The notes: a model not told the origin generated them from the sequence alone. A DNA stretch of 64,000 nt from Polyangiaceae bacterium (GCA_033763455.1 JANRKO010000080.1:1-64000); one strand, 5' to 3'. Shown: positions 23,113 through 43,300, numbered from the stretch's first letter. Numbers and translations: made by a program.

Positions 23113-23128
23113 TGGCACGGTCGTCGCT
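23113..23128 (+). promoter_or_regulatory. Sigma54 -24/-12 promoter of the sulfur operon
   Basis: TGGCACGGTCGTCGCT with canonical GG-N10-GC spacing, 27 nt upstream of the ATG at 23155; divergent EBP adjacent. Confidence 0.75.
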
Positions 23129-23154
23129 ATAGAGCTGGCAGGAGAAAAGCGACG

Positions 23155-24153
23155 ATGATCTTTAGACAGCTCTTTGATGCAGAAAGCTCCACCTACACGT
23201 ATTTGATAGCGGACCCGGAAACCCGACTAGCGGCGTTGGTCGATCCGGTGCGTGAGCAAATCGAGCGTGATCTCGCTCTTCTTGCGGACCTTGATTTGAA
23301 GCTTGCGTATGTTCTGGATACGCACGTTCATGCTGACCACGTCACCGCCGCTGGGACGTTGCGGCAGCGAACCGGCGCTCGTACCGTTGGTGGTGAGAAG
23401 GCCGCCCCGTGCGTGGACCTTAGGGTCAAACACGGTGGAGTGATTGAAGTTGGAGCCCTAAGAGTTACGCTACTGGAAACGCCAGGGCACACCGACGACA
23501 GCGTGAGTTACCTGGTTGGAGACTCTCTGTTTAGCGGAGACGCTTTGTTGGTCCGTGGTACAGGGCGTACAGACTTTCAGAACGGGAACCCTCGCGCGCT
23601 CTATCGTTCGATTACGCAGGTTCTGTTCGCTCTGCCTGATGAAACGCGCGTTTTTCCGGGGCACGATTACCGCGGCAACTCCGTCACCACGATCGGCGAA
23701 GAAAAGCGCTTCAATCCCCGTCTCGCCGGTAAAGATGAGGCGGCATTTGTGCAAATAATGAGCGAATTGGCCTTGCCTCCGCCCAAAAAGATCAACGAGG
23801 CGGTTCCCGCGAATCAAGCTTGTGGCATTCAAACGGGTTCGTACAAAGACGTTAGTCCCACGGATGCGCATGCGATGTGTACGCAAGTGCGATTGGTAGA
23901 CGTTCGGGAGCGGGAAGAGTGGACCGGCGACTTGGGGCACATCCCGAACGCGGAATTGGTGCCCCTCGCTACGTTGCCTCAGGCTGCAAGCGCATGGGAT
24001 CACGATAAGCCTGTGATGGTTGTTTGCCGCTCCGGGGGGCGTTCCTCTCGCGCCGCTCAGTGGCTGGTAAGCAATGGTTTTTCCGCTGTCTGGAATGTGG
24101 CTGGCGGCATGCTTGAATACCGTGCGGCTGGGCTCCCAGCGGTGAGGAGCTAA
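23155..24153 (+). CDS. Persulfide dioxygenase (ETHE1-like MBL) fused to rhodanese
   Basis: MIFRQLFDAESSTYTY, THVHADH, TPGHT, GRTDFQ, PGHDY; C-terminal rhodanese LVDVRE...VCRSGGRS. Confidence 0.92.
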   Translation: MIFRQLFDAESSTYTYLIADPETRLAALVDPVREQIERDLALLADLDLKLAYVLDTHVHADHVTAAGTLRQRTGARTVGGEKAAPCVDLRVKHGGVIEVGALRVTLLETPGHTDDSVSYLVGDSLFSGDALLVRGTGRTDFQNGNPRALYRSITQVLFALPDETRVFPGHDYRGNSVTTIGEEKRFNPRLAGKDEAAFVQIMSELALPPPKKINEAVPANQACGIQTGSYKDVSPTDAHAMCTQVRLVDVREREEWTGDLGHIPNAELVPLATLPQAASAWDHDKPVMVVCRSGGRSSRAAQWLVSNGFSAVWNVAGGMLEYRAAGLPAVRS

Positions 24154-24157
24154 AGCT

Positions 24158-25405: not shown

Positions 25406-25409
25406 GTTT

Positions 25410-25877
25410 ATGAAAAGCCGCTATATCTTCTTCGGTCTTGTTTTTGGCTTTGTTCTTTCACGTGCAGGGGCCACAGAATTCGACGCTATCTTGGGAATGT
25501 TTCGCCTCACCGATCTGCATTTGTTTGGTGTTATAGGAGTCGCGGTGGCTACCGCTGCCCTAGGGTTTGCTGCGTTTCGGCGGGGCATGGTTCACGCGAA
25601 AGGTGGCGGCGACGTGCATCTAACGGCCAAGCCCATGAGCAAAGGCCTGGTTCACGGGGGGTTGTTGTTCGGCGTCGGTTGGGCCGTCACAGGAACGTGT
25701 CCGGGTACGGCATTGGCGCAAATCGGTGAAGGGCACTTGGCCGGGTTGTTCACTTTTGCAGGCGTGCTCCTCGGCGTGTGGCTGCATTCGCTCAGCCAAG
25801 CGCCGATGTCGGCTTCGACTGGACGAGGAGCTTCGAAGTTAGGCCGGCTTGGCCATGTCGGCAAGACCGCGGGTTGA
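25410..25877 (+). CDS. YeeE/YedE-family sulfur-transport half protein
   Basis: FGLVFGFVL, GGLLFGVGWAVTGTCPG motif; GAGGTGA SD. Confidence 0.85.
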   Translation: MKSRYIFFGLVFGFVLSRAGATEFDAILGMFRLTDLHLFGVIGVAVATAALGFAAFRRGMVHAKGGGDVHLTAKPMSKGLVHGGLLFGVGWAVTGTCPGTALAQIGEGHLAGLFTFAGVLLGVWLHSLSQAPMSASTGRGASKLGRLGHVGKTAG

Positions 25878-25953
25878 ATCCTACCTTGTGTGACGTTACG
25901 TCGTTGTCGAGTTGTGAGGTGGTCAGCGACGAGCGCGACAGGCTGCCAGCGTC

Positions 25954-27810
25954 CTACTGTCGCGTTAGCTCGTACAGCCCACATCCGGGGTTGGCGTACA
26001 GCTTTCCGCCAGAGGTTACGACATGCATCGTTTGGGCGCCGATCGCCCAAAGATCAACTTCGCTTCCGCCTGCCTTCGGAACCGCCGCAACTCCCGTGCT
26101 TTCACGTGCCACGATGACCTCACTCGGGGCCATAACAAAACTAGTGATGATATTCCCCACCGTGCTGATGAGTGTGGCTTGGCCACCAGCGCGGGGGACC
26201 TTGTAGACCGCGTTGATATCCCCACCGGTAACCACGTACGCATCCGTTGAGTCGAGGCCTACGCCCACGATGCGATTGCCGAGCCTACTGCCGCCCGGCT
26301 GGATGACTTGTACTGGGAAGACGTCAGGCGTAGTCAGATCGCTGCGCCACAACATTGCGGGCGTCGACGTTCCTTGGGGGGAGTACGTGGCGAAGTAGAC
26401 GTCGTTACCATCTATTGCCACAGTACCTTCAGCAGCAAACGTGGTGCGTGCCACAGGCACAATTAGCTCCGATCCAACGGTAGGTGGGCGGATGAGCTGC
26501 AACCCTGCGGACCCTGGGACAAATACCAGGTTTGCTGTTGCCGTACATCCGGAGAGCGGCGAAAGGTTGGTTGCGATAGGGGTGCCCTGGGCAGCGTTGA
26601 CAGCCTGCGAGAATACGCTGCCGCCATCAAGAATGTACGCGGTGTTACCCTGTGCACACATGCCATAGGACGAGGCCGTACTGGCGAAATTCGTAACGCT
26701 CTTGGTGTTGAGGTCGATCTTGAGAATTTCTGTGCCAAATTCTGCGCTTGCTAGCACGAAGCCATCTCCCGCCACCGCGCCAACGAACGCACCGTCAACG
26801 AGTTTGGTACGGGTGGTTGCGCCCGTTCCGTCGGTTGCAGCAAGGCACGGTGTGAGGTTAACACCAGATCCAGTGCCGCCTGTTGCGTTCGCTCCTCCCG
26901 CGGCGGGAGCTCCCCCTGCTTCCCCGCCAGCGGGAGCTCCGCCCGTGCCTCCAGCGCTAGCTGGTTCTGAGCCGCCGGCTCCGGGCAAACCACCAGTGCC
27001 TGAGGCCCCGCCAACTCCGGAGGCCCCACCGACGCCAGGAGCGTTGGCAGCAGCGCACGGCCACCCACAGTGCGAAGCTGCCGCGTACAACACCTGCGTG
27101 GGTGAAAACACAAGTGCGCCCGGCAAGCGGAGCGGGCCCGACGATGTTGGCGACTTACCGCTGCTGCCAGCGTCACACGTGCAAAGGATTTCGGTCCCGT
27201 TGTTGGATGCCTGGCACTTGGCGCCAACGGTGCCATTGCTGGCCGAACACGAACCTGAGCAGCTCGAAGGTGGAAAGGAGTCACTCGGTGAGCAGGTAAG
27301 CTCGCAGGCATCCGGCACCAAGCAGCCAGTGTTGGCGAAGAACGAAAGCCGAGGCTTGGCGACATACCAGGTGGAAAACTCGTCAGCGACACCCGACACT
27401 GTTGCCCCGGCTGTATTGGCGGCAGCAATCATGACTGGGACGGAGCCGGCAGCAGGCTCACGCATGAGGAAAGCGGGGCCGCCTGCGCCGCTACCTGTGG
27501 GCAGGGTAACGCGCAGGACTTTTTTGAAGCGAACACCTTCGGGCTCAAGGCGATACGCCTTTCCGATGAGCTCCAGATCCGTTCCCACTGAGGTTGCTGC
27601 TGCCTCAGCGATCTTGAACGCCACGGGCTCACCAACGGCTCCCGGAGGGACTTCCACGGTCACCCCATCAGGCCCAGTAATGGTGCCGCCCTCTGGGCCG
27701 ATCAGTCGCGATACAGGCTGCGCCACGGGGGTGGTGGGCTTATCGCTGGTGCTACACGAAAGGACCAAGGCGTGAAGAGCAACGACAACAGGGAGCTTGA
27801 GTTTGGTCAT
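25954..27810 (-). CDS. Multidomain lipoprotein: ZU5-like, Cys-rich, Gly-rich linker, beta-propeller-like
   Basis: Lipobox LVLSC; IGPEGGTI...VEVPPGAV...EPEGVRF ZU5-like segment; GGASG repeats; propeller-type repeats (AIDGNDVYF, GLDSTDAYV, KVPRAGG). Confidence 0.7.
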   Translation of the reverse strand: MTKLKLPVVVALHALVLSCSTSDKPTTPVAQPVSRLIGPEGGTITGPDGVTVEVPPGAVGEPVAFKIAEAAATSVGTDLELIGKAYRLEPEGVRFKKVLRVTLPTGSGAGGPAFLMREPAAGSVPVMIAAANTAGATVSGVADEFSTWYVAKPRLSFFANTGCLVPDACELTCSPSDSFPPSSCSGSCSASNGTVGAKCQASNNGTEILCTCDAGSSGKSPTSSGPLRLPGALVFSPTQVLYAAASHCGWPCAAANAPGVGGASGVGGASGTGGLPGAGGSEPASAGGTGGAPAGGEAGGAPAAGGANATGGTGSGVNLTPCLAATDGTGATTRTKLVDGAFVGAVAGDGFVLASAEFGTEILKIDLNTKSVTNFASTASSYGMCAQGNTAYILDGGSVFSQAVNAAQGTPIATNLSPLSGCTATANLVFVPGSAGLQLIRPPTVGSELIVPVARTTFAAEGTVAIDGNDVYFATYSPQGTSTPAMLWRSDLTTPDVFPVQVIQPGGSRLGNRIVGVGLDSTDAYVVTGGDINAVYKVPRAGGQATLISTVGNIITSFVMAPSEVIVARESTGVAAVPKAGGSEVDLWAIGAQTMHVVTSGGKLYANPGCGLYELTRQ

Positions 27811-29058: not shown

Positions 29059-31044
29059 TCACTTGAATGTGCAGGGGCAAGGAAAGCTTGCCCGCACGTC
29101 GTGGTTGCCTTTTTTGATCGAATCGCAGGAAGCGCCGAGGAGCTGCAGTTCGGTGGGGCTGTTCAGACGCCAGCCATCGCTGCCTTCGTGTGAGATCTTT
29201 ACGCCATCAACGGTAACCACGCCGAGATCTTCCTCGTCGGCGGCCACGCTGCCGTCTAGCGTGAATACGCACGAACGGACGCCTGTGACGATGTCCGACA
29301 ACGCATGGGTGAGGGAGCTCGTATCGTTCGCGCGGTAAAAGGGAGCCTGCTCGGCACCCCCACCTTCTAGACCCGCTCCAGCGTTAGCAAGATCCGAAAG
29401 GTGTTTTTCTCCGACTTCGTTGCCTACGCTGATCACGTAGACGGAGATGCCTTTTTGATAGGCCTTCCGTGCAGCTTCCAGCGACATTTGTCGGGAAATT
29501 TCATCGTGGGCGTCTGGAGCGGCGCAGCGATCCGGTTCTCCGTCAGTGGCCAAGATCACGGCCTTTGGTCCACTTGCGGCGTCCGCATCGAGCAGGGCAA
29601 CCACTTGGTCGAGGCTCTCGGCCGTCGGTGTGTCCCCAATGGGCTTTGCTTTAGAATACATTTCTGCGATGCGCGCGTAGTTGTCGAGTTCAAAATCTAC
29701 GGTGCTCAAGAGTGGGCAGGTGCTGGCTACACTGCGGTTATTGCTGTACAATCCGAGCCCAAAGCGGACGTCGCTCTGAAGTGTTGCCATGAGGCCAACT
29801 TTCGGATCGATCAACGAATCGCGCAGCGCCGCCCAGCGCGTGCGGTTGCCTTCCAGGAGCTTGCTCATGCTTGCTGACTGATCAACCAAAACCATGATGG
29901 TGGGCTGGGTGCGCTTGAGACTGATTTCACTCACCACGCAGTCATTCTGGCGCACGCATTCCTTGTATTCGTTGCAGCTCTGCATGGGTAGGCTGAATTC
30001 TGTAGAGGTTTGTCGCGGTCCGGAGCTCGTTGCTTCAGTCACGGTGATGCGCGCTTGGGTTGGGTCGCAGCTCGTGCGTTCGATACAGAATTCTGCAGCC
30101 TTGCTGACCTTTGCCGCCTTTTCGTTCAAGGCGGAAAGGAGATTGTCGTAGTCGGCGATCGACACATAATCTCCGCCGCTTTCGTGACTGAGCTGTGTGA
30201 GCGCTGCGGCATCCACGTCCTTTCCGACGCCTACCGTAAAGATCGGAGTGCGGGCTCCGTCGACCTCCAGCTTGAGCAAGTCATCTAAAGTTGTGGCAAT
30301 GCCATCCCCCGCTGCGTCGGTCGGGTGTTCGTCGGCAGAATTATTGTCCCCTCCGTCAGAGAAGACCACGATGGAGCGCAGGCCGCGCTCCATGCAGTTG
30401 GGCTTGCTGACGTTCGTTCCTACACCAGCAACCAGCGTCTCGTTGGCGAGTCGAATGCCGTCGTAGAGGGCCGTCCAGCCGTTGCTGATAAATAGATCTT
30501 CAACATGAGCGCTAGCTTGTGCGGCATCGTTCGTGAGATCTCCGCGGAGGGTTGCCACCGTGCTCACCCGCACCAGGCCCACCCGGTGCTCGGGGGAAAT
30601 CAAGAGGCCCTCGACGAAGCCGTGAGCCGCGCGGCGTATGCTCTTCCCCCGGTTGCGTTCACTTCCGCTATTGTCTGCTACGAGCATCGTGTCCACTTTG
30701 ACTGGGCCCGAGTTTACGGTGACGGTGGCGGGCACCCATTCGCCAAAAGCGTTCTGCACCTCAGCGGTGACTACAGCATCACCGCCTAGTGGCTTAGAGA
30801 CACCGTCGGCGTCCTGAATGTACATGGCGCCGCCCACCTGTGGGCCATCGGATTCGGTCAAATGTGCGACCTGTACGGCTGATGGCTCTTCGCCTTTGCT
30901 GGACGTACAAGCGATCCCTGCTAACAGAAGGGCTAATACGGGATTGCAACGGAGGCCACGCGCTAGTTGGATAGATACGGTGCTTCGATATCGGTCGTGG
31001 TTCGCGCGTACTGCCATTGCCTTAAGCATGACGTTGATGGGCAT
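29059..31044 (-). CDS. Tandem double-VWA lipoprotein (start uncertain)
   Basis: Lipobox LLAGIAC; two MIDAS sets DNSGS/TALYD/SDG and DQSAS/TPT/TDG. Confidence 0.8.
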   Translation of the reverse strand: MPINVMLKAMAVRANHDRYRSTVSIQLARGLRCNPVLALLLAGIACTSSKGEEPSAVQVAHLTESDGPQVGGAMYIQDADGVSKPLGGDAVVTAEVQNAFGEWVPATVTVNSGPVKVDTMLVADNSGSERNRGKSIRRAAHGFVEGLLISPEHRVGLVRVSTVATLRGDLTNDAAQASAHVEDLFISNGWTALYDGIRLANETLVAGVGTNVSKPNCMERGLRSIVVFSDGGDNNSADEHPTDAAGDGIATTLDDLLKLEVDGARTPIFTVGVGKDVDAAALTQLSHESGGDYVSIADYDNLLSALNEKAAKVSKAAEFCIERTSCDPTQARITVTEATSSGPRQTSTEFSLPMQSCNEYKECVRQNDCVVSEISLKRTQPTIMVLVDQSASMSKLLEGNRTRWAALRDSLIDPKVGLMATLQSDVRFGLGLYSNNRSVASTCPLLSTVDFELDNYARIAEMYSKAKPIGDTPTAESLDQVVALLDADAASGPKAVILATDGEPDRCAAPDAHDEISRQMSLEAARKAYQKGISVYVISVGNEVGEKHLSDLANAGAGLEGGGAEQAPFYRANDTSSLTHALSDIVTGVRSCVFTLDGSVAADEEDLGVVTVDGVKISHEGSDGWRLNSPTELQLLGASCDSIKKGNHDVRASFPCPCTFK

Positions 31045-31170: not shown

Positions 31171-33630
31171 TCAATGCTGAACTTTCGGTTTCCGTAAAGG
31201 AACAATGTCGGCGCCGGGTTCGGTGGAAATCTTGGGGTGGGCACGGAGCAGGCTGATAATGAGGCTCGTTCCCCAACCTTCTTCGCTACGCAGTGTGAGC
31301 CGGCCGTGGCTATTTTCGACAGCCGCTGCCAACGCCCCGAGGCTCGCAAGCCCTGCGGGGGGATCTGCTGGCGCTGTCAACGTGCGTTTCAGCGCAGCTG
31401 TCGGCACGTCCAATCGTAGATCAAGGAGTGAGACTTCCACCCTCAGGTGTCGCTCACGGATAGTGACGACGGGTCCCGTGCCCGAGCCCTCCCGCGCTGC
31501 CGCTTCGACTAAAAATTGCTCCAATGTTGCGCTGAGTTCCGGGCGATGACCGATGACTTGAGCAACGACACGGGGGGCTTGAAGGCGGATATTCCCCTGG
31601 TTACGTCGCGCCACGGTATCTACAACGTCCGTTATTACCTGCGCCATGGAAAACACGGTGAGCACGTCCCGTCGCTCCGGAAATGCTTGAACATTGTCGC
31701 CTTCCTCACTCACCTGATGGCGCTGCACTTCCACCACAGACCCCACGAAGCCGGCTCCGCCTTGTTCCTCGCTCTCCATCGCCTTGACTGAAATCACGAG
31801 CGCTCGCTGGCTTCCGTCACGTCCGAGTGTTGGCAGTTCCACTAGCCAGCCCTTATCGGCCACTTCACTGAGGCTTGGTGCTGGCAGGCTGAGGCGGGAG
31901 CTTACCGCGCCGAGTAGGCGCGTGAGGGGCAATGTGCGCACAGGGATCATGCCGCTAGGTCCGGCCTCCGGAAGCTCGAGCTCACAATACCTCAACAGAT
32001 CGAGCACTGCGCGGCCCGCGATGCGAATGTCGCCAAAGGCGTCAGCATACATTAGCCCCACCGGTGCCGACCGCAAAACGCTGCTGAAGAGCTGAAGTTC
32101 GTCCAGTGCGGTGCGGGCCTGTGTGATCAAATTGTGAGAGTCCGCTCCAGCTTCGCCGACTAAAAGCCCGGCGGTACGCCGCCAATCATCCTGACGCCCG
32201 CGCTCAATTCGGCGTTTTCTTATTAGCTCGGCAACATCGTTACCAAGCCGCAACGACAATTCTGGCTTTTTCGCGTAGGAATCTGCGGCGTTCTTGCCGA
32301 TCAAGAAGATGTAGCCTTCGAGTTCGCCCGCTGCCTCCAGGGGGATAAACAGCATCGGCACTCCCGCCATCACCACGTAGTCGTGCAGCACCTTGATGGC
32401 GCGCGCGCCAGTCTCGTCGACGTACGGAGTGCGGCGAACGTCTCTGCGTCGTTCGCGAATAATGGACTCGTTGAGGTCGCCGTGTGGCCACACTTTCAAG
32501 CGCCAACTAAACGCAGGGAGCTCCGCAACAAGGACTGCGTCCGCCGGGTGAGATTGCGCGATTCTGTCAGCTAGGCGCTCAAAGAATTCAGCGTCTGGGA
32601 GTGCGTGTGTTCCTGGTGTGCCCAAGGTTGCGCCTGCGAGCAGCTTCTCGGCGCTGCTTCTCGCACGGCGTTGAGCGAACACGCGGGGAGCGTGAAGCGT
32701 GGCAGTGTGCACAAGCAACGCGAGGCCAAGGCTTGGAAGTGGCCACAAAACGCCAATTCCGCGGGCTCCAAAGAGCGAGGCCGAAACGAGTAGCAAGTAG
32801 ATCGCGAGAGGAGGCAGGTGCCCGAGCGAACGCCACCGCCTATGCCGCCCGAGGAACAGGAGAAAAGCGCCCGTTCCAACTGCTACGAGGGCAACTTGCC
32901 AAAACACCGCCGGCTCGCGTGGCCCTTCCTCGATGGCACCCGCCATGGAAGCTGCCACTCGGGCACTCAAGGGGCCAAGTGCGTTCACGTGATTTCCGTC
33001 GATGAGTGCGTCGTCCAGTGAAAGCAGCGCGATCCGCCGCTTCAAGACGTCCGCTTCGACCCGACCCTCGCGTAGATCGGTCAACGAGATGCGTGGCACC
33101 GATTCCCAAGGGCGCGGGGAAACCCAGCGTGTTCGGGCGAACCCTAAGGGTTTCAGGCGATGGAAATCTGCAGGGGGCGCGTAGAATCCCAATATCCTTC
33201 CGTCGCTGTCACGCAGCAGCGTTGGAGCGGGCAGCACTGCTAGGTTCGACACCACGGCGTCGCCTTGCGGTCCGCACAGTTTGTCGAGTGGAGGCAACAG
33301 TAGGCTGAAGCGCGCCCCCCCAACGTGTGCGGCTTTCACTACCGAAGTAAAACAGTCGGAGCGGTGCGCCTCGCTTGCGTCGACGGATACCACGACAACG
33401 CTCGTTGGCGGTTCGCGCTTGGCCGTCAGCTCCAAAAGGGTGCGGTGTAGCCAGTGGTCAACGAACCCGAGCGGAGAACTGACCGCGACGAGTACGAGCA
33501 AGGTTGCTGCTAGAGCATCGAGTGAGACGTAGTCCCAGAACGGGTGCTGTCGTCGAACCGCGGACGCCATAGGGCGCGGCAGCAAGAACTTGCGCGGCAC
33601 CTTTCCCGGCTTCGAACGGAACCATTTCAT
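31171..33630 (-). CDS. CHASE2-domain membrane sensor with a degenerate histidine-kinase-like C-terminus
   Basis: TM, then PPTSVVVVSVD...LKRRIALL CHASE2-like region, three TMs, GAF/PAS-like segments, HATPase-like tail (ENSHGRLTLRSEEGWGTSLIISL) without a recognisable H-box or N-box. Confidence 0.65.
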   Translation of the reverse strand: MKWFRSKPGKVPRKFLLPRPMASAVRRQHPFWDYVSLDALAATLLVLVAVSSPLGFVDHWLHRTLLELTAKREPPTSVVVVSVDASEAHRSDCFTSVVKAAHVGGARFSLLLPPLDKLCGPQGDAVVSNLAVLPAPTLLRDSDGRILGFYAPPADFHRLKPLGFARTRWVSPRPWESVPRISLTDLREGRVEADVLKRRIALLSLDDALIDGNHVNALGPLSARVAASMAGAIEEGPREPAVFWQVALVAVGTGAFLLFLGRHRRWRSLGHLPPLAIYLLLVSASLFGARGIGVLWPLPSLGLALLVHTATLHAPRVFAQRRARSSAEKLLAGATLGTPGTHALPDAEFFERLADRIAQSHPADAVLVAELPAFSWRLKVWPHGDLNESIIRERRRDVRRTPYVDETGARAIKVLHDYVVMAGVPMLFIPLEAAGELEGYIFLIGKNAADSYAKKPELSLRLGNDVAELIRKRRIERGRQDDWRRTAGLLVGEAGADSHNLITQARTALDELQLFSSVLRSAPVGLMYADAFGDIRIAGRAVLDLLRYCELELPEAGPSGMIPVRTLPLTRLLGAVSSRLSLPAPSLSEVADKGWLVELPTLGRDGSQRALVISVKAMESEEQGGAGFVGSVVEVQRHQVSEEGDNVQAFPERRDVLTVFSMAQVITDVVDTVARRNQGNIRLQAPRVVAQVIGHRPELSATLEQFLVEAAAREGSGTGPVVTIRERHLRVEVSLLDLRLDVPTAALKRTLTAPADPPAGLASLGALAAAVENSHGRLTLRSEEGWGTSLIISLLRAHPKISTEPGADIVPLRKPKVQH

Positions 33631-33779: not shown

Positions 33780-36700
33780 GTGCGCGGATCTGCCGAAGTG
33801 GAGGACACGCTTGTGTTGGAATTTCTCGGGATAGGCACCTCCCACGCCTGGAACGTATTTCCGGACAACGGTTTGGACCGGAGCTTGCACGCGCCGATCT
33901 TGATCGGGCTTTTGTTCCTCACGTTTTTCCGAGAAACGTTCGGCTGGAGCTACGCGGGATTGGTCGTGCCCGGCTACCTCGCCGTGGTGGCGCTTTCGGC
34001 ACCTGTTACCGGTGCTCTCATCGTTGGAGAAGCGATCTTGGCTTACTGGTTGGCGTACGCCGTTGGGCGTCTCCTACCGCGGTTGGGGCTGTGGTCGCCA
34101 CTATTTGGCAGAGAGCGATTCCTGCTGATCATACTGGCCTCTTTGGTGGTGCGGCTTGCGCTGGAAGGATACTGGATCAGTTGGTTGGTAAATCGCTACG
34201 GACTCACCCATTCTCGCGAGCTCCATAGCATTGGGCTGGTGCTCGTGGCCCTTTTGGCCAACGCGTTCTGGAATTCAGGGTTCGTTGCAGTCTTACCGCG
34301 ACTCGGCTTGGTCGTAGGGGCTACGTACTTGGTTGTTGGCCAGGTATTGCTTGCCCATACAAACTTCACGCTAGCGCGCTTTCAAGTAGCCAATGAGAGC
34401 GTGTCCCTCGCTTTTCTGGAGACGCCCCACGCCCACATTATTTTGGCGCTCGGTGCCATCATGGCAGCGCGGGATAACGTCCGCTACGGGTGGGATTATA
34501 ACGGAATTCTAGTGCCCGCCCTCCTGGCGGTAGCCTGGTATTCGCCCACCAAGCTCCTAACAACCGTCTTGGAGGCGCTGCTGGTGTTGTGGCTCTCCAA
34601 GCTCGTCACGCAATATGGGCCGCTTGCGCGCGTGCTGATGGTTGGCTCGCGGCGTATGTTGGTTGCCTATTCCGTTGGGTTCTTTACCAAATGGGTGGTT
34701 GGTTTTGCGATGATGCGGCTTCTGCCGGGCGTGCAACTATTGGATTTTTTCGGGTTCGGATACCTATTGCCGTCGCTCTTGGCGATCAAAATGTGGAACA
34801 CGGGGCGCATTCCCACCGTTATTATGCCGACGCTTCAGGTTTCGCTGGGTGCCTTCATCGCGGGAAACGCCCTGGCTTATAGCCTTCGTTTGGCTGAAAA
34901 CGCGTTGGCTTCTGCGCAGCCCGGATCGACGATTGAAACATCACGCTCCGTTGCCTGGGATCTTCTACGCGCGGACAGTGCACCGGAGCCGCGCCCACAG
35001 GCCCTGCGAGTGTTTGAGAGATCACCCGCTCAACAGGTGCTGCAAGTTATCGAGGCGATTCCTGGGGCGAGCGCAGATCTTGGAGGCATCGAATGGGAGC
35101 CGAGCATTCGAGTCGCTAAAACCCCAGATAAATGGTGGGTTTTGGGCCCGCGCTCGCTCGACCCGGACAACGATTGGGTATGCCCTCGTGTCGCGCTATC
35201 GTTCGATAGCAAGCAGAACTGGCTCGTAGTGGCCGAAACTTCCGAGGCCGCTTCTGCTAACATCGTTGTGGCATCTGAGCTTGCGAAGAGGATCTCTGCC
35301 AGAGCTGTAGTGGTGCGTTCCACACAGCCGGCGTTGGCACCCTTTGACGATGCCTTCATTGACGAGCTAAACCAACGTCTCAATATCGAGTTGGTGATCA
35401 TTGTGCGCCAGAGTGCGGGGCCCGCTCGGCTGGAGCTTTCCGGCAAGTTGCCTGAGGGGCTCGATGCGGCGTGGATGCGGCGGACTGTGGGCGGGCAGTT
35501 GGCGCTTACCTGGCGTGCGCCGAGCGTGGGGAAAAGTCCCACGGACAACGCCCCGATCCTGTTGATTGACCGAGCAACCGCCGAGACAACTGCGGCGGCT
35601 TTGCTTTCCGCGCCGGAACCGGAACTTTGGGGCCCGAGCTTGCGCGAGGTGTTGGACGTGAAAATGCCAGCACTCACCTCCGTACTTCCCGGCCACCACA
35701 GGAATCCAACCATCGAAGAGCTTCGCATTTTCTCCAAAGGTGTTGGTCGAACCTTCCTCCGCTTCGCTAGAGGTGAGGCAGCCCCGACGGCCTATAGTCG
35801 AGCGATAGCTGCAGAGCTCGGGCTTAGAACGGCCAAGGTCAGCGATCCGACTGGAGACATGTGGGCGTTGTTCTCCCCACCGGGCGAAGAACGAGAGGGG
35901 CATGCTACGTGGATAGTTCGAGGTCCAGGGAAGGTTGAAGATCGAGGCCGGCGGCCGGTATTGCTCGAAGTTCCGAGTCCGCTGTGGGAACGGGGAACGC
36001 TTAGCGCCGCGCTGTCGTTCTCTCGCGCGCTTGGTTCACAATCGATGCTCCTATCCGGTTCCTTTCCCACGGCCACCCCAGATGGCAGTGCGGACGTGCG
36101 TAGTGTTTTCGGCAAGCGTTCTTACTTTCAACATATTCACGAGCTTTGGATACAACAGCAGGGCTTGGTTCTGAGCGTTCAAGGCATTGCACCTTCTCGT
36201 ATCGCGAATGCTGACGTGATCGTGACGTTGCCGCAGGACTTGAGCGACTTCGGTCGCGCACCCAGCTGGGCACATCCGCTACTGCAACTTCTAAAAGGCA
36301 GTGGGCTGGAGGTAGCGCCGGTCGATGGCTCCCTTGAAAGAGCGCCATTCGAAGCCACGGCTCAACCGACGATGGCCTACGCCCGGCGCTTCGGCGATCA
36401 ACAAATGCTGATTGCCTGGCTCACCGCCGAGACGCGACTACGCTTTGTCGCTGCGGACGAACAAGACGCCTTGACGCAGGCTAGGTTGCTGCGAATGGGC
36501 AAGCCCGTGGCCGCTCTCTCTGTGGCGGAGCGGGCCCGGTTCCTGGCTGTGTGTAAGGCCGGCGTTAGCGGCTGCCCGAGCCTTGGCTCCGAATGTTCTC
36601 TCGACACTCAAGCCCTCGCGATTGGAAGTTATGTGCGTGAACGCAATCCGTACTGGTTACGGAGTGTGCTTTCAGCAGAGCGAGGCTGCTTTGCCGAAGT

Positions 36701-36881
36701 TGCGCAGGATGCTGCGGGGGGAACGCTCTTTGCGCTTTTGGCTAACGCCAAAGAGGTTCGTTTGGTTCCACTGCGTACTGGGAGTCTGATGACGCTCGGG
36801 CGCCCCCTGCGGGACCCACCCAATCTTGAGCAGGCGGTTGCGCTAGGGCTCTCGGCCATCGCCATTGGGGCTGTGCGATGA
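33780..36881 (+). CDS. capC: Poly-gamma-glutamate synthesis CapC/PgsC tandem-domain fusion with a large C-terminal extramembrane region (start uncertain)
   Basis: AGLVVPGYLA, LFGRERF and SIGLVLVALLAN match CapC motifs; second repeat NGILVPALLA, VGSRRM, GFGYLLPSLLA; about 660 extra aa. Confidence 0.85.
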   Translation: MRGSAEVEDTLVLEFLGIGTSHAWNVFPDNGLDRSLHAPILIGLLFLTFFRETFGWSYAGLVVPGYLAVVALSAPVTGALIVGEAILAYWLAYAVGRLLPRLGLWSPLFGRERFLLIILASLVVRLALEGYWISWLVNRYGLTHSRELHSIGLVLVALLANAFWNSGFVAVLPRLGLVVGATYLVVGQVLLAHTNFTLARFQVANESVSLAFLETPHAHIILALGAIMAARDNVRYGWDYNGILVPALLAVAWYSPTKLLTTVLEALLVLWLSKLVTQYGPLARVLMVGSRRMLVAYSVGFFTKWVVGFAMMRLLPGVQLLDFFGFGYLLPSLLAIKMWNTGRIPTVIMPTLQVSLGAFIAGNALAYSLRLAENALASAQPGSTIETSRSVAWDLLRADSAPEPRPQALRVFERSPAQQVLQVIEAIPGASADLGGIEWEPSIRVAKTPDKWWVLGPRSLDPDNDWVCPRVALSFDSKQNWLVVAETSEAASANIVVASELAKRISARAVVVRSTQPALAPFDDAFIDELNQRLNIELVIIVRQSAGPARLELSGKLPEGLDAAWMRRTVGGQLALTWRAPSVGKSPTDNAPILLIDRATAETTAAALLSAPEPELWGPSLREVLDVKMPALTSVLPGHHRNPTIEELRIFSKGVGRTFLRFARGEAAPTAYSRAIAAELGLRTAKVSDPTGDMWALFSPPGEEREGHATWIVRGPGKVEDRGRRPVLLEVPSPLWERGTLSAALSFSRALGSQSMLLSGSFPTATPDGSADVRSVFGKRSYFQHIHELWIQQQGLVLSVQGIAPSRIANADVIVTLPQDLSDFGRAPSWAHPLLQLLKGSGLEVAPVDGSLERAPFEATAQPTMAYARRFGDQQMLIAWLTAETRLRFVAADEQDALTQARLLRMGKPVAALSVAERARFLAVCKAGVSGCPSLGSECSLDTQALAIGSYVRERNPYWLRSVLSAERGCFAEVAQDAAGGTLFALLANAKEVRLVPLRTGSLMTLGRPLRDPPNLEQAVALGLSAIAIGAVR

Positions 36882-39307
36882 TTCGCTGGGTTGGTGTGAC
36901 ATTGGTCGTCTTGTTAACTGCGCTGGTGCTGTACAAAGTGCGAGAGCACGAGGGGGATACCGAGCTCGTAGATGAGATCCTCGCTTACGAATTGGTTCCA
37001 GGTCGCGCCTTGGAGGTTCCCCTCTATTCCGACATGACCGAAGTCAACTTTACCAGTTGGATGCTCTTGCCGGATTCTTATAGCCGCGATCCCTCGCAAA
37101 GATTCGAGTATGGCGTGCAGCTCTCCCTGATCGATGCCGCAGGGCATATGCTGAGCCAGCAGGTGATTCGTTTGGTGAGTCGGGTCAGCGGAGATCCAGC
37201 TGAACCAGCTGAGCTTGGTAGATTCTCCGCTCGGCTCGTGGATGGTTCCGAACGGGTCACCGACTCACGCACCAAGGTCGTGGATACGAGTGCACTGAAC
37301 GGGCGTGGGCGTCTCCGCCTCACCACTGTGCCAGGTGAACCGGATACAGTGCTGGTGCGCTTGGCTTACCCCGAGGAAAGAAGCGAGCTCATGCAGCGGA
37401 TCGCCGCCCGAACGTTAGCCCTCGGCAAGCGTCGCCGGCTGGTTGAGCAGAGCTTCAGTCTTGGCTTTTCCGATCTGCCAGAAGAAGCACGTTTGCGCGC
37501 AGTCACGGCCTGGGGCAGACGCCTTACTGCGGCTGGGCGCGCGGATACTGATTACGTGACGAGGCGGCTCCTGCTGGGATCGCTTCGCTCCGATACTGCG
37601 CCATACCAAGCAGAGCAGGTGGGTGTTCCGCTGGGCCCACTCCACAACGCCACATTTAATCTCAAGCATAGTGTCACGTTGCGTATTGAGGCGGAGCCCG
37701 GTCGTCAATTTTCCGTACGCGAGGGGGACGCGAAGCCAAGAGAGGTGTTAGTTGGCGACAGTGGGCGAGTCGAACTGAAGGCTTCTGGTGAGGTTCCGCG
37801 TACACTCAATATCGAATCCAAGAGCAACTTGAACGCGCAGTTCAGCCTACCCGCTAGCGATTCATCGGCCCTCATTGGCGATCTTGAGCCGATGTTGAAA
37901 GGTGGCCGTCTCTGGCTATCTCCGGACGTGCGGAACGCTCGCTTCTATCGGCTGGATCCTGCTGAACCTGTCCAATTCTCGATTGCGCCTCTGCAAGCCG
38001 TTCTGAGGTTGGTGGTGCGTGGGCTCGTTTTTGACTCCACGGCGCCTAAGCCTGTGTGGGTAAGAGTATTGTGGGATGGCCAGGCTCCAGACCAAGTTCC
38101 CGAGCTACAAGCCGAGCTCCCAGTCAGTCCCACTGATGACGCAGATGGAAGTCACGTGACGGCTGAGAAGAAGGTGTTGCTGCGCCTTCCGGCCCATGTG
38201 CGAAAGGTACGCGTCGTAGGCGACGGCAGTACCGTTGTGGCGGCTTTCAGCGAAGAACCGGGAGTTGCCGAGAGTCGCATTCACCCGGCGTATGATGTGC
38301 CTCTGGCGGCCAACCAGGTGTGGCGCGCTGCCCCCTACGATATCCGGCGCTTCGCCGGCCTGCGCCCTTCCAACGAAGAAGCACTTGTTGGGGCGGCTAG
38401 AGTTGCGCGCGTAGGGTCTCAGGTTCGCATCGAATCCTTGGCGGAAGGTGTAGGCGAGCGCATTGCAGAACGCGTCCTCATTCCTCTAGCGGCACCGATG
38501 GTGCGTTCCCTTTACACACCCACTTGGGCGGCACGCGGGCGACCTTCAATGGAGGCGATCTGGAGCGTGCAGCAGGGAGAACCAACAAGCGAGCAAGTCT
38601 ACTGGGTTCCTCAGTCGGGGGAGAGAGCCGCTCGGATGCCGTTGATCTACAGGGCGGATCCACGAAGCCTTGGCGGAACACTTCGGGTCACGAGTGCTCA
38701 GAAGTCGATCGCTGAGCGCCCGCTCCTTGCTCTCGATGGTGAGCTCACGTTACGGGGCCTGCCGGCGAGCCTTCCGCTCGGTGTCTCGGGCTTGGGTGCG
38801 GGCGGCATACTTCTAATCGGTGCCGCCCCGGACGCAGGTGGCAAAGTTATAGTGCGAAGCCAGAAGGTCTTCGAGCTGACCTCCCAGCGGCCCTTGCTTT
38901 TCTCCTTTCAGGTGAAGGAAGGGGAGCTGCTGTCGGCCTGGCTCAACCTAACCTCTTTGAACAAGCGCCAAAGCTACCGAGTAAAGTACGCGATCGACCG
39001 GGGCAAGCCTCGACCCGCGCCGCAGCGCTTCTTTCGCAGGATGAGCCAATGGGAGGGTGAGCTTTTGGGTTCGACGGGAAGCAAGCTCGGCCTGATCTGG
39101 GAGGCTCCGCGAGAAGGCGAAGTTAACGCGCTGTTCTTGGATCACATCGGGCTGGCGCGCATTGAGTTGGGTGATGACTTGGCGCCCGGTGTGCATACTT
39201 TGGAGCTTCGGCTAATCGGACCGGAGCCCTTGTGGGTACGGGCCGTGCTTGCGGGGCGAGTGGCCGCCCCATCAGAAGATTTGCCTGCGCTTGCTGAGGA
39301 GGAATGA
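36878..39307 (+). CDS. Hypothetical N-terminally membrane-anchored, beta-rich protein of the cap-like operon
   Basis: Single N-terminal hydrophobic helix; ATGA overlaps with both neighbours; 809-aa ORF. Confidence 0.75.
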   Translation: MIRWVGVTLVVLLTALVLYKVREHEGDTELVDEILAYELVPGRALEVPLYSDMTEVNFTSWMLLPDSYSRDPSQRFEYGVQLSLIDAAGHMLSQQVIRLVSRVSGDPAEPAELGRFSARLVDGSERVTDSRTKVVDTSALNGRGRLRLTTVPGEPDTVLVRLAYPEERSELMQRIAARTLALGKRRRLVEQSFSLGFSDLPEEARLRAVTAWGRRLTAAGRADTDYVTRRLLLGSLRSDTAPYQAEQVGVPLGPLHNATFNLKHSVTLRIEAEPGRQFSVREGDAKPREVLVGDSGRVELKASGEVPRTLNIESKSNLNAQFSLPASDSSALIGDLEPMLKGGRLWLSPDVRNARFYRLDPAEPVQFSIAPLQAVLRLVVRGLVFDSTAPKPVWVRVLWDGQAPDQVPELQAELPVSPTDDADGSHVTAEKKVLLRLPAHVRKVRVVGDGSTVVAAFSEEPGVAESRIHPAYDVPLAANQVWRAAPYDIRRFAGLRPSNEEALVGAARVARVGSQVRIESLAEGVGERIAERVLIPLAAPMVRSLYTPTWAARGRPSMEAIWSVQQGEPTSEQVYWVPQSGERAARMPLIYRADPRSLGGTLRVTSAQKSIAERPLLALDGELTLRGLPASLPLGVSGLGAGGILLIGAAPDAGGKVIVRSQKVFELTSQRPLLFSFQVKEGELLSAWLNLTSLNKRQSYRVKYAIDRGKPRPAPQRFFRRMSQWEGELLGSTGSKLGLIWEAPREGEVNALFLDHIGLARIELGDDLAPGVHTLELRLIGPEPLWVRAVLAGRVAAPSEDLPALAEEE

Positions 39308-40326
39308 TGAATGCTTGGAAGCTTACTGCTGTGTCCTTAGCCGTCGTTCTCACCGGCTGTCGCGGTTGCGAGCCGGACAAACGTGACGAATCCACCGAGA
39401 TGACTCCGCCGCCCCCAGCTTCGTCAGCTCCGCCTGTGCCGTCTGCCACTTTAGGCGAGGAAAAGCCGCAAGCCGGCCCCCTTCCGCTACTGGAGCATTT
39501 GCGCTTCAGCCGCCGCAGCGAAGGCGTGCAGTTCGTGAATCCAACGCCTGAGGAAGGTCGAGCCTTTGTCGGTTGGGTAACGGCGGTGAGCCGAGCTGCT
39601 TGGTCGGATCGACTACCCGGCGCGGCCCCACCGGATGGCTTCGAAGGTGTGTTGACCCAGCTTGGAACGCTCTGGCTGCTGCGGGAGAAATCAGACCAGC
39701 GGCGTGGTGCGGGCGCGTACGTACTTCGGGCAAGCGCGGGGCGTCCGCTCATCCTGCAGGCGCCCCACACCTTCTTCGATGCAGGCACTCTGCCCATTGC
39801 TACGCGACTCTTCGAACGGCTGCAAGCCAAAGCCCTGTTGATCAACACCGTGCATCGATCGGGTGGCCAAGAAGGCGAAGGCGAGGAGGAAAAAGAGAAA
39901 GCCCGGAGCGGTAAGTCAGAAGCTGATGTCGCTCACAACCGTGAGAGCTTCTATTCGTTGGTTCATGAATCGTTGCTCACGGTAGATCCCACGCTGTTGG
40001 TTATTCAAATTCATGGTTTTCGAGATGCCAAAGTGCCCGGTGTCGATCTTGTGGTGAGCGCAGCAGACACGCAGGCTGATATCAGACCGATGGGGAGAAT
40101 CATGAAAGGCCTGCTGGGTGCGAACCGAGTTCGACTCTATCCCGAAGAAATTAAGCTTCTCGGTGGAACCACGAACGCTCAGGCGTTTATCAGCCGCAAA
40201 AAGCGAACCGCCTTCATTCACCTTGAGCTGTCCGCAAAGCTCCGAAAAGCGCTCGAAAAGGACGACATTTTCTTCGCAAAATTCCTCCGAGCATTTTCTC
40301 AGGCAATCCCGGAGGGCCGTCGTTGA
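39304..40326 (+). CDS. Lipoprotein with a Zn-dependent amidohydrolase fold (gamma-PGA hydrolase/N-formylglutamate amidohydrolase-like)
   Basis: Lipobox VLTGC; Pro-rich linker; QAPHTFFD, IQIHGF and FIHLELS give the His/Asp/His metal ligands and catalytic Glu arrangement of this fold. Confidence 0.65.
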   Translation: MMNAWKLTAVSLAVVLTGCRGCEPDKRDESTEMTPPPPASSAPPVPSATLGEEKPQAGPLPLLEHLRFSRRSEGVQFVNPTPEEGRAFVGWVTAVSRAAWSDRLPGAAPPDGFEGVLTQLGTLWLLREKSDQRRGAGAYVLRASAGRPLILQAPHTFFDAGTLPIATRLFERLQAKALLINTVHRSGGQEGEGEEEKEKARSGKSEADVAHNRESFYSLVHESLLTVDPTLLVIQIHGFRDAKVPGVDLVVSAADTQADIRPMGRIMKGLLGANRVRLYPEEIKLLGGTTNAQAFISRKKRTAFIHLELSAKLRKALEKDDIFFAKFLRAFSQAIPEGRR

Positions 40327-43300
40327 CGATGCGGTTGAACGCTCGTGTTGCCCGCCACCTGTTCGTGAGTTTGGTCTTTATTGTAGGCTGGCTTACGTCG
40401 CAGCGTGCGAACGCCTGGGACGCTCTCGCCTGGGGTGTGCCGCAGCAGGTGCGCGTGTTTCGCTGGGAGGATGCACGCATGCCTGCCATGCTACTGCGAA
40501 GCGTCGATCCACTGGTGGATGCCGAGCTGTTGGATCAAGAGCTTTTGCTCTCTCCAGTGAAACCGGGGCAAGAGGTGCGTATCTTTGGTGATCCGGTTGA
40601 AGTTGGCCTCGGAAGTGGTAGTCGAGACTTACCAGACGTGATCACCTGGCAAGCTCCCGGGGCGTGGTTGCGGCGAGTTGCTGCAGGTGTGCATGAGCTC
40701 AGAGTCCCCACCTATGAGAGTGCGCGTTGGGTGGTCGTGCGCTCGCCATACCCGAAAACCAGAGTACGCTTGGAGGTCGCTTTGCCGGAGGTCAGCAATA
40801 TCCTCTGGTACCGTGCAGAAGAGAATGTGTGGCGCATGCTCGAAGGCGGACCCGTGCCAACGCTTTTGGGACCTCTAGCATCGCACCAGAGCGAAATACG
40901 CTTTCTCGACGCGGCGCGCCGAGCATTCCCCGAAGGCGTGGGCAGGGAGTTCCTGCAGAGCCATTGGCTCGAATTCGCGTGGCAGGAAAGGGGATTGGGG
41001 CGACCCTACTTCGTGTCGGCACAGGTGGGCCCTGCGCCGGCGCCGGTGCCGTTGTTGCAGCAAGCGAGCGCACCATGGGTCCCGCAGCCCGATGGCTCCT
41101 GGGTCACTTCGCTGACTGAGGGGCACACCGCAGCAGTGCATTCCGATGAGGCCGAGGTCGTAACGCTCTTCGTCCGCGCCCACGCAGTAGGTCAGATCCG
41201 GATCGTCGTCCGCCAAGGCGCGGGGCTCGTCGCTGTCATGAAGCAGGACATTGCCAGGAATGCAGAAGATCCCGCGAGGCTGACTCCAGCGACAAGATTT
41301 CGGTTGCCGATGGCTCCTGGTACGCCAATTTCGATCCAAGTTCAGCGAGGAACTGCGGAGCTCAGCATTTCGGGGTACCGAGCGCGGCCAAGCATCACTG
41401 ACGGCACTCCGATACGGCAACGCACCGAGCTCCTGCGATTGGGCATGCGGGGCAAAGGGGCTTCAGCCGCAGAGCGTGTGGCGCGTGTTCTCTCTAAGCT
41501 AGCGCTGTGTCGTTGCCCAGAAGCGGTAGAGGAAGGGCAAGAGCTGCTAACCATAACAACCGGAAAGGTACGGGCGTTGGTCCTGTTTGAGCTGATCTAT
41601 CAGGGGATTGGCTTGGTGGATGTGAATGTGCTCCTGCCGCAATTTTGGAAGGCGACGGCCGGGCTCGAGGAAACTGACCGCTTAGCATTTCGGCGACAAC
41701 TCTTGCAGCGTCTCACGGAGGTCGATGCTGAGCCCCTACAGGTGGAGCATCTGGAGGATGTGGCGATTCGCTCCGGTTTTGTCGAAACCGAAGCACTGAG
41801 TGAAGACGCGTTCGCCACCGCGGCACTGGCCGAGATGATCGCCGTTCCTCGGGACGGTGCACGTCCGTGGTTCGCTGCAGCCGCAGAGGTGCGGGCGGCA
41901 GAGAGGCCCGAGCGGGCGGATCTTGTCGAGCTCGGACGTCGCTCTTGGTTTCGCACGGCGCCATGGTCGTGGATCGATCCAAGCGGCAGCGAAACGATCT
42001 CCAGGGTGCGCAATGTATATGGGGCTCGCCCCGAAGAGCTCTGCGAGAGCCAAGGAGATCGCGGCCCGCGCTGGCTCAGGCTAAGCCATACGCCAGAACC
42101 CCTCGCGATAAGAGCCGATAGTGGCACCCATGCGCGCGTGCTGCTGCGGAGCGAGGCGGAGGTTCCGGCAGCGGACACAAGCGTGCAGGTGGGCGCTACT
42201 CAGATTCATGTTCACGCGGGTATAGGCCTTTACTCAAGCATGGGGCTTGCACCCGGCACACACGAAATTCATGTCCAAAGTGGCCCGGACATCCTCGCCC
42301 AGCTTCCACTTGCCCAGCCGGTGCCGTGCGGGAGGTTGCGTGAGATTGAGCGTTGGGTTCCCATACGCCAGAGCGTGCACTTCGCGATCACCCGCGGTGA
42401 GGTGGGTACGGTCGGTAGGCTCCTTCTAGATCTAGATCAGGCCAACCCCAAATTCGGCGAAGTCGAGGTGCGTGTACAGAACGAAGTGCACCGTGCGTGG
42501 GCGCGTGCACCTGCAACAGGAGCCGTGGAGTTTCCGCTGCCGAAGGATGTTGAGGCGTTTGAGGTTCGGTCTGGCGAACCAGTCCTCGTGCGTGCTCTCC
42601 AGCGATTGCACAAGATGCCAAAGGCCCAAGCTCCGCGGGCACTTGCCAAGCTTGACGTCCCCTTGAACGAACCCGAGCTCCTGGCTCAGGTTCGGCGGAG
42701 CACGCGTGCCCTTGGCACCTCTAAGTCTGCCAAGGAGCGAGCTACCCTGCGTTTGGCTCGCGCGAAAGCTCTACAAGATCTAGGTTACTTGCGCCTCGCG
42801 GCGGTGGATCGAGTGCGCGCGAATCAGCCGGAATCCGATACGGACCGGTCGGATGCCACAGCTGAGTGGTTGCTTCTTCCTCCGGGTAGTCCACCCGTGG
42901 TGGCGTTGAACCTCTTAGCTAAAATCCCGCCCCTACCGCTGCCAATTCCAAGCAAGACACTAGAGCTCGCGTTCCGGCAACGCCAGCTGGGCGCTCCTCC
43001 GGTCGATGTTATCTCCACGTTGGGCGCGTCCGCACAGTACTCCAGTGCCGTGGACGCCTTGCTACTGGCTGTGCTTGCCGAACAGCTCGGACTGCTAGAG
43101 GTGTCGGCTTCGGCGTACGAGCGAATTGGCCACGCGCTGCGCTCGGGCCATGCGTTGGCTCACTCGGCAGAGCTGCGAGCAGATTTCGCCGAAAAAGAAC
43201 AAAGCCTCGACCAAACGATGACCGCCTACATCACGGCAAGGCAAGCCGAGGCGTCGCTCGTGCCGGCGGGGGATGTTCTAGCGCGCATGGATCGCGCGAT

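Follow-up and report, generated by a model that had tools for sequence, protein, structure and literature searches.

CapC/PgsC is, to our knowledge, the least understood subunit of the polyglutamate synthetases, and we know of studies on it only as a small protein acting with PgsB in Bacillus and its relatives. Here we describe a far larger protein with the same membrane domain, encoded at 33780-36881 (+) in a 64,000-nucleotide stretch of DNA from a Polyangiaceae bacterium (GCA_033763455.1, JANRKO010000080.1:1-64000)—the whole of which is referred to below as the window. Like PgsC/CapC of the PgsBCA(E) and CapBCADE systems, this fused protein is predicted to have its C-terminus outside the membrane; unlike them, it carries the domain duplicated in tandem and followed by about 650 extra residues, which include two hydrolase-like domains (D1 and D2), and it falls below the cutoff of the family model TIGR04011. 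Among the open reading frames scanned in the window and 15 related loci, no PgsB gene adjoins the fused gene, in contrast to PgsBCA, and no CapA gene adjoins it in the window or in 13 of these 15 loci; the hosts, unlike the Bacillus hosts of PgsBCA, are diderm Myxococcota, Gammaproteobacteria and Campylobacterota. In Bacillus, PgsA/CapA (PF09587) is the extracytoplasmic partner of CapC, a part that a preliminary description of this DNA had proposed for D1 and D2; these domains, however, have neither a sequence nor a fold relation to PgsA/CapA, and their structural neighbours are carboxypeptidase-like.

Two other kinds of envelope system invite comparison by analogy. EnvC and NlpD are degenerate hydrolase domains that control active cell-wall amidases, with FtsEX. 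The fused protein may be likened to this arrangement as a membrane protein with a dead, predicted periplasmic domain of hydrolase fold whose active counterpart is encoded separately; it differs in that the fold is carboxypeptidase-like rather than LytM and the membrane partner is CapC rather than an ABC-type protein. Synthase-dependent secretion operons, such as those for cellulose, alginate, Pel and poly-N-acetylglucosamine, include a periplasmic polymer-cleaving enzyme, and the cluster around the fused gene might be compared with them in combining an inner-membrane component, periplasmic or secreted giant proteins, a repeat-rich scaffold and a dedicated hydrolase. Unlike these operons, it contains no identified synthase or ligase and shows no sequence relation to them, and its HEAT-repeat protein has no signal peptide.

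The third point of reference is enzymatic. PghP, PghL and the N-formylglutamate amidohydrolase (FGase) group have a fold in common with D1, D2 and a lipoprotein encoded downstream of the fused gene. According to PMC6506827, the zinc ligands of PghL are His41, Glu46 and His102, its Glu165 is the equivalent of Glu270, the general base in carboxypeptidase A, and His77 and Arg171 hold the carboxylates of polyglutamate—with the exchange Arg171Ser abolishing activity. As judged by sequence pattern, the lipoprotein resembles PghL in having a His/acidic/His set and a catalytic Glu followed by an Arg at a distance of six residues; it differs in its spacing (His-x3-Asp, not His-x4-Glu), in being about 130 residues longer and in its lipid anchor. 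D1 and D2, unlike PghP and PghL, are devoid of the zinc ligands and the catalytic Glu. Database entries label members of the fused family "PgsC/CapC family protein" or "membrane protein", and ESM Atlas entries gave only these labels or "hypothetical"; a full-text literature search, with subscription journals outside its range, returned nothing on tandem CapC proteins, their C-terminal domains or the cluster.

Two hydrolase-like domains in the fused protein

The region beyond the CapC repeats contains two domains of the PghP/FGase (zinc carboxypeptidase-like) fold, both of them paralogues of the downstream lipoprotein. D2 (residues ~692-891, counted here and throughout from the GTG at 33780; 35853-36452, +) was recognised by BLASTP, hhalign and Foldseek alike: residues 692-840 of the fused protein align with residues 121-269 of the lipoprotein at 18% identity (E 9e-7), the single fused sequence matches the lipoprotein family profile with a probability of 92 (E 6.5e-7), and the profile-profile comparison of D2 with that family in hhalign reaches a probability of 99.6 over 185 columns (E 2.8e-24). 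D1 (residues ~440-607; 35097-35600, +), which is strongly degenerate, escaped single-sequence comparison and was revealed by profiles alone, with hhalign probabilities of 97.4 against the lipoprotein family (E 9.4e-12) and 97.9 against D2 (E 3.2e-13). These comparisons drew on alignments of 46 full-length fused proteins and 26 lipoprotein homologues. The likeness to the lipoprotein that the preliminary description had drawn by eye is therefore beyond chance, and the more eroded repeat it suspected near 35215-35325 is real, given the profile-level match of D1, which takes in residues 480-515. All four motifs it quoted lie where it placed them, at residues 59-68 (nucleotide 33954) and 241-250 (34500) and from residues 725 (35952) and 480 (35217) onwards.

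Structure prediction agrees with the profile comparisons. The AlphaFold2 model of residues 380-1033 has a mean predicted local distance difference test score (pLDDT) of 91.7 and a predicted template-modelling (TM) score of 0.93, and the polyglutamate hydrolase structures 21dc, 3a9l and 5onj were retrieved for it by Foldseek at probabilities of 0.99-1.00, with target TM scores of 0.50, 0.52 and 0.45, respectively. Further matches included succinylglutamate desuccinylase, the peptidoglycan carboxypeptidase Csd4 and the FGase structure 2q7s; two-domain aminopeptidases were also returned and were disregarded, their root-mean-square deviation exceeding 20 Å. In the AlphaFold2 models the order of helices and strands is identical in the lipoprotein, in D2 and, minus one helix, in D1; the folds match by hhalign and Foldseek alike. 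The remainder of the protein, an alpha/beta tail (residues ~892-1033; 36453-36878, +), is modelled confidently within one compact body; its last ~130 residues gave no match to the lipoprotein family in profile comparison and have no recognised relatives. Cysteines in the tail, considered as a sign of a periplasmic disulfide, were dropped, as they are kept in only 17-22 of the 46 aligned sequences.

None of the 46 aligned fused proteins has a Pfam family in the last 650 residues, and sequence searches of the Protein Data Bank with the fused protein, the lipoprotein and its profile, and the neighbouring proteins of 1609, 1420 and 819 amino acids (aa) yielded nothing usable. A word-indexed search with residues 380-1033, in which the 8000 candidates sharing the most words were scored, returned only the fused protein itself; an exhaustive search with the same residues gave 220 representative clusters at E<=1e-3, the source of the 46 aligned proteins. 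When the hidden Markov model of the lipoprotein was run on six-frame open reading frames (ORFs) from 80 loci (see below), it matched the fused ORF twice in 6 of them and once in 17 more.

The relationship between the fused domains and the free-standing enzyme is an old one. Myxococcota, Gammaproteobacteria and Campylobacterota alike possess both dead fused domains and a live enzyme. A crude neighbour-joining tree (52 sequences, 203 columns, distances near saturation) set the free-standing enzymes apart from every fused domain in 100 of 100 bootstraps; D2 formed a group in 66 of 100, and D1, at 16 of 100, was not recovered as one. Since Myxococcota-type and non-Myxococcota-type systems both hold dead and live versions and the tree separates the two, D1 and D2 are old paralogues and not a recently decayed copy of the neighbour. 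When the mature lipoprotein was modelled in complex with the C-terminal region, the prediction had a score of 0.00 and a mark of 0.32, which speaks neither for nor against an association.

Active-site residues of D1, D2 and the lipoprotein

The free-standing protein (39304-40326, +) is a lipoprotein with the lipobox LTGC and, by homologues, AlphaFold2 and Foldseek, a PghP/FGase-fold zinc hydrolase. Its 266 homologues are without exception unnamed or "hypothetical". The AlphaFold2 model (pLDDT 84.1) led Foldseek to 2odf (E 2.8e-5), 5onj (7.4e-5) and 3a9l (1.3e-4, target TM score 0.55), then to 21dc and 2q7s, with classical zinc carboxypeptidases and aminopeptidases in the next ranks. Among these, 5onj is YndL/PghL with bound polyglutamate, 3a9l is PghP, 21dc is likewise a phage polyglutamate hydrolase and 2q7s is an N-formylglutamate amidohydrolase; 2odf is Atu2144, which PMC6506827 lists alongside N-formylglutamate amidohydrolase. 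The Pfam family PF05908 did not match the lipoprotein of the window, and 2 of 26 members of the lipoprotein family matched PF05908 weakly (best E 0.0036).

Eight residues—H155, D159, R185, D208, H237, H306, E308 and R314—are present in all 58 free-standing homologues, which come from 52 loci. The first core strand leads into H155-x3-D159, and H237 stands at the end of another strand; the last strand contains E308, which is separated from R314 by the same six-residue spacing as Glu165 from Arg171 in PghL. To judge by pattern and spacing, the lipoprotein appears to carry every residue expected of a zinc gamma-glutamyl hydrolase, and the preliminary description was right to call the neighbour a zinc hydrolase. 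In six Corallococcus loci (L069, L072, L074, L076, L077 and L078, each at ~8000-9750, +), the fused gene is closely preceded by a second free-standing hydrolase paralogue, which has intact zinc ligands but Asn at the position of His184.

The hhalign alignment pairs H155, D159, H237, E308 and R314 of the lipoprotein with S733 (nucleotide 35976), E737 (35988), Q801 (36180), W880 (36417) and R886 (36435) of D2 in the window. We counted these columns in 149 listed relatives, 135 of which could be scored at both ligand columns. Both zinc His occur together in none of the 135. At position 733, a zinc ligand in the lipoprotein, Arg is found in 85, Ala in 30 and His in 8; at 801, likewise a ligand position, Arg in 106, Gln in 13 and His in 11. 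The third ligand position, 737, has kept an acidic residue (Glu in 118, Asp in 9); D772 is a further conserved Asp of D2. The catalytic Glu of the lipoprotein has given way to Trp at 880 in 123 relatives, and the anchoring Arg is retained at 886 in 127. In most of these proteins Arg/Arg/Trp occupies two ligand positions and the position of the catalytic Glu, and the metal site is incomplete in every scorable protein. D1 retains none of these residues and, in the window, is more decayed than the family consensus.

On the strength of these alignments, D1 and D2 are pseudo-enzymes whose replacement residues are themselves conserved, and two pocket residues kept in D2 would suit the binding of carboxylates. 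The replacement of metal ligands noted in the preliminary description (S733 and Q801) is borne out and extends to the catalytic position, W880. Its reading of an apparently inactivated copy of the neighbour stands insofar as D1 and D2 are dead homologues; a recent or local decay is contradicted by their coexistence with the live enzyme across phyla, by the 100 of 100 split in the tree and by the conserved Arg/Arg/Trp set.

CapC repeats and predicted topology

The layout of the whole ORF, CapC-CapC-D1-D2-tail (33780-36881, +), rests on the ORF itself, Pfam and homologues. GTG 33780 opens the longest ORF, of 1033 aa. A second in-frame GTG at 33813 lies 7 nucleotides past a GGAGGA box (33801-33806), and the database protein identical to the ORF, P0001, has 1022 aa; for these two reasons the real start is probably 33813, which gives a protein of 1022 aa.

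Pfam finds PF14102 twice in the ORF, with an E-value of 5.9e-45 and 153 bits against a cutoff of 27, so the tandem CapC N-terminus first read from motifs is confirmed. The best stretch corresponds to repeat 1 (residues 42-170; 33903-34289, +), and the second, together with a BLASTP match to repeat 1 (29% identity, E 2e-8), delimits repeat 2 (residues ~217-358; 34428-34853, +). With the NCBIfam model TIGR04011, which describes the PgsC equivalog, the score is 75.8 bits and so falls short of the cutoff, 96.45. This makes the domain CapC-like but the protein no ordinary PgsC. Two CapC stretches were present in 23 of 24 sampled relatives and in all 46 proteins of the full alignment, in which most of the family's invariant columns sit within the CapC repeats.

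Six hydrophobic segments were marked by hand in each repeat, twelve in all. Across the 46 sequences, the predicted inner loops delimited in this way contain on average 8.3 Lys and Arg residues against 2.1 Asp and Glu, and the predicted outer loops 3.6 against 6.9. This bias points to a topology with both the N- and the C-terminus outside. The prediction agrees with PhoA fusions to B. subtilis PgsC, for which PMC7490850 reports an external C-terminus and an internal central segment. From the loop charges, the PgsC fusions and the lipoprotein nature of the paralogue, we infer a periplasmic location for D1, D2 and the tail.

Distribution and gene neighbourhood

A genome scan gave at least 599 matched stretches, at least 572 of which encode a relative of the fused protein, and neighbourhoods were taken from the best 80 loci (numbered with the prefix L). 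These come from Polyangiaceae, Sorangium, Polyangium, Chondromyces, Corallococcus, Labilithrix and Sandaracinaceae, as well as from Chromatiaceae, Arenicellales, Thiodiazotropha, Thiobacillus, Sulfurovum and other Campylobacterota. The window itself, with a G+C content of ~59%, has a myxobacterial appearance, and the nearest relatives of the genes studied are from Polyangiaceae.

In the window, the fused gene heads a series of five consecutive genes on the + strand whose stops and starts overlap (33780-36881, 36878-39307, 39304-40326, 40323-45152 and 45149-49411), an arrangement that suggests one transcription unit; scans of the region for Rfam families, tRNAs, terminators and promoters gave nothing relevant. 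The second gene (36878-39307, +), which is syntenic in most loci, encodes an 809-aa protein with an N-terminal membrane anchor and no known family; its similarity to the positional counterpart in a Chromatiaceae locus is weak (E 3e-4). After the lipoprotein gene comes that of a 1609-aa secreted protein (40323-45152, +) with a signal peptide ending in ANA and, again, no known family. Distant loci have proteins of 1511-1849 aa in its place, with no detectable similarity between the 1609-aa protein and its positional counterpart. In an Arenicellales locus (L063:16322-21868, +), the giant protein that closes the module contains a peptidoglycan-binding SPOR domain (E 1.1e-13), a hint that it touches the cell wall. 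Last in the series (45149-49411, +) is the gene for a 1420-aa HEAT-repeat protein without a signal peptide, homologues of which follow in many loci of Polyangiaceae and two of Campylobacterota.

Upstream and divergent lies the gene for an 819-aa membrane protein (31171-33630, -), the counterpart of CHASE2/GAF/HATPase_c sensors that precede the fused gene elsewhere. It has no Pfam match in the window; its synteny extends to 50 of the 80 loci by tblastn, and BLASTP relates it weakly to the CHASE2 protein of L061 (E 1e-4). Genes with c-di-GMP-related domains were seen no more than a few kb from the module in three loci: a response regulator-GGDEF protein (L002:3305-5860), a Ser/Thr kinase-PilZ protein (L061:1376-3019) and a CHASE2-GGDEF-EAL protein (L070:2027-4513).

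The full gene order of the window is repeated in Polyangiaceae loci. In four low-G+C loci from other phyla, the order is a CHASE2/GAF/HATPase_c protein (857-909 aa), the fused protein, a protein of 802-824 aa, the hydrolase and a protein of 1511-1849 aa. The free-standing hydrolase is encoded within 10 kb or the fetched flanks in 52 of the 80 loci, including those of Gammaproteobacteria and Campylobacterota. Six of the 80 are too short for judging its presence; among the 74 long enough, 22 with at least 7 kb downstream, almost all of them from Sorangium and Chondromyces, have no hydrolase nearby, so the pairing is not obligatory in cis. Chondromyces species do encode lipoprotein homologues somewhere in the genome.

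Ligase and CapA genes

A gene for a CapB/PgsB-type Mur ligase would be expected next to a conventional CapC. Scans covering 32 of the 43 ORFs that reach 200 aa in the window (the other 11 being shorter, overlapping ORFs), 36 of 47 picked ORFs from four related loci and, for 11 further loci, 84 of the 103 ORFs that reach 280 aa (19 ORFs of L056 excluded) revealed none. CapA-family genes (PF09587, PGA_cap) adjoin the fused gene in 2 of the 15 loci: L051:6160-8631 (+; 824 aa, E 9e-58) and L009:4929-7211 (-; 761 aa, E 1e-50). In L051, a gene for an HD-domain protein stands between the two. No PF09587 match was found in the C-terminal region of any of the 46 fused proteins.

The occurrence of CapA-family genes beside the fused gene argues against a simple replacement of CapA by D1 and D2. 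The literature searched contained no report of poly-gamma-glutamate (PGA) in these lineages. A role of the fused protein in polyglutamate synthesis, or in place of CapA, is unproven; the idea that its C-terminal region threads a nascent polymer in place of CapA, put forward in the preliminary description, presupposes a synthetase and is not supported, with no CapB among the ORFs scanned in the window and the 15 loci and CapA next to the fused gene in two of these loci.

Other features of the window and related loci

Several further observations concern genes near the fused gene. A 661-aa protein encoded at 29059-31044 (-) has two VWA domains, and its C-terminal ~80 residues resemble CglB, a gliding-motility lipoprotein; the match to NF033757 (CglB) has an E-value of 7e-20 and is far under the cutoff. 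By tblastn, relatives of this protein lie near the fused gene in L009, L042, L043, L049 and L052. Sorangium, Polyangium and Corallococcus have, immediately ahead of the fused gene (L018:7948-9909, L031:6581-8617 and L069:6447-8327, all +), a gene for a sedolisin-type peptidase with a Pro-kumamolisin activation domain; in L018 and L069 the peptidase also has a subtilase domain. The 1420-aa gene carries at its 3' end 2.7 copies of an 18-base unit with the core GGGGCCCC (49341-49389), and an ADP-ribosylglycohydrolase gene (49413-50918) is convergent to that gene.

Elsewhere in the window, the strongest base skews occur at 24001-26000 (GC skew 0.174, AT skew -0.339), a peak that coincides with a fused TauE/sulfur-transport membrane gene (23068-25405) adjoining a metallo-beta-lactamase-rhodanese gene. 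Two large, uncharacterised features are unrelated to the fused gene: a 1394-aa DUF3857-transglutaminase-DUF3858-TPR protein (4461-8645, -) and a DUF1592/1588/1587/1595/1585 + DUF1552 gene pair (11271-14416, +).

Discussion

We favour, with modest confidence, the interpretation that D2 is a periplasmic module which binds, without catalysis, a ligand that contains glutamate or is otherwise rich in carboxylates, and which operates within a conserved set of envelope genes. This reading of sequence patterns and predicted models follows from the retention of E737, D772 and R886 and from the Arg that usually occupies the former metal site. D2 would hold its ligand at the outer face of the CapC-type membrane domain, and the live lipoprotein would cut what D1 and D2 hold, that is, the same ligand. 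This conserved envelope module would consist of a CHASE2-type sensor, the fused protein, the anchored protein of ~810 aa, the hydrolase lipoprotein and the secreted protein of 1500-1850 aa. As to the ligand, a polyglutamate-like polymer and a peptidoglycan-derived gamma-D-glutamyl peptide would be equally good candidates, because gamma-glutamyl or N-acyl-glutamate bonds are the targets of the nearest enzymes with solved structures. A wider proposal, which we regard as possible though doubtful, is that the fused protein forms the inner-membrane core of an unrecognised envelope-spanning apparatus of diderm bacteria that would handle a gamma-glutamyl-linked polymer or peptide without PgsB, with D1 and D2 as its periplasmic substrate clamp. 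Such an apparatus would be distributed over Myxococcota, sulfur-oxidising Gammaproteobacteria and Campylobacterota and would include, besides the CHASE2-type sensor, the ~810-aa protein, the lipoprotein and the secreted giant, the HEAT-repeat protein in some lineages.

Several observations weigh against D2 as a binding module of this kind. D1 has none of the pocket residues. D2 of the window has Ser and Gln, not Arg, at the old ligand positions, and the Myxococcota clade has mostly Ala at 733, so the idea that Arg fills the metal site applies mainly to the non-Myxococcota clade. The equivalences of the lipoprotein and D2 to PghL are drawn from sequence pattern and spacing rather than from a residue-level superposition, and the transmembrane segments behind the topology were drawn by hand. 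The neighbourhoods scanned, that is, the 64-kb window and the 15 loci, hold no polymer-making ligase, and the hydrolase is missing from the vicinity of the fused gene in the 22 loci mentioned above.

The conservation of the dead domains in their own right, which is strong, would also be expected if they served the live lipoprotein directly—docking, positioning or switching it on at the membrane protein—without binding substrate. That dead and live paralogues are encoded together across phyla and are both placed in the periplasm by prediction is consistent with such a role, as is, by analogy, the way the degenerate LytM factors EnvC and NlpD work with FtsEX; yet the 22 loci without a nearby free-standing enzyme fit it poorly, and the carboxylate-anchoring Arg and acidic pocket residue kept in D2 are better suited to ligand binding. 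We consider this explanation unlikely. Somewhat less probable in our view is that a true PGA synthetase has the fused protein as its membrane core, with its CapB encoded elsewhere and D1 and D2 guiding the nascent chain instead of CapA. The CapC domains do score far above the Pfam threshold, PGA hydrolases are the nearest solved folds of dead and live domains alike, the CapA-family genes of two loci form a loose link to PGA-type genes, and the combination of secreted giant and hydrolase might recall polymer-secretion operons. Nevertheless, no Mur-ligase or CapB-type gene turned up among the ORFs scanned, the TIGR04011 cutoff is missed, CapA alongside D1 and D2 in some loci does not fit a replacement, and PGA has no report from these lineages in the literature searched.

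Still more improbable, we think, is a sensory function, in which the periplasmic region would detect a glutamyl compound of the envelope or the exterior and signal to the CHASE2/GAF/kinase-like protein, leaving CapC mainly as a scaffold. Here one can point to the CHASE2-type protein, constant upstream of the fused gene in distant phyla and with a divergent counterpart in the window, and to the c-di-GMP and response-regulator genes near the module in L002, L061 and L070. The CapC repeats, however, hold most of the invariant columns, a sign that they have a function of their own, and three more large conserved proteins would be left unexplained. It is highly improbable that D2 is still an enzyme, whether by a metal-free mechanism or through a non-canonical site, for which His762 together with Glu737 and Asp772 would be candidates outside the Myxococcota clade: E737, D772 and, in 83 of the 135 relatives, H762 are conserved and line the former pocket in the alignment, but the general-base Glu has become Trp in 123 of 135, the zinc His pair is present in none, and the window protein itself has Phe at 762.

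A non-catalytic binding role for D2 thus remains the interpretation we prefer, and it makes D1 and D2 a concrete handle on the system—the ligand they bind would identify the substrate of the whole cluster. The finding of CapC in duplicate, in a large family and without a ligase nearby suggests that this domain has a membrane function of its own, be it a channel, a translocation step or a scaffold. Neither the C-terminal domains nor the hydrolase family is represented in Pfam, and their description would close an annotation gap in at least 572 genomes. Finally, several phyla have kept the dead paralogue together with the live one, which makes the pair a clean case for the study of pseudoenzyme retention.

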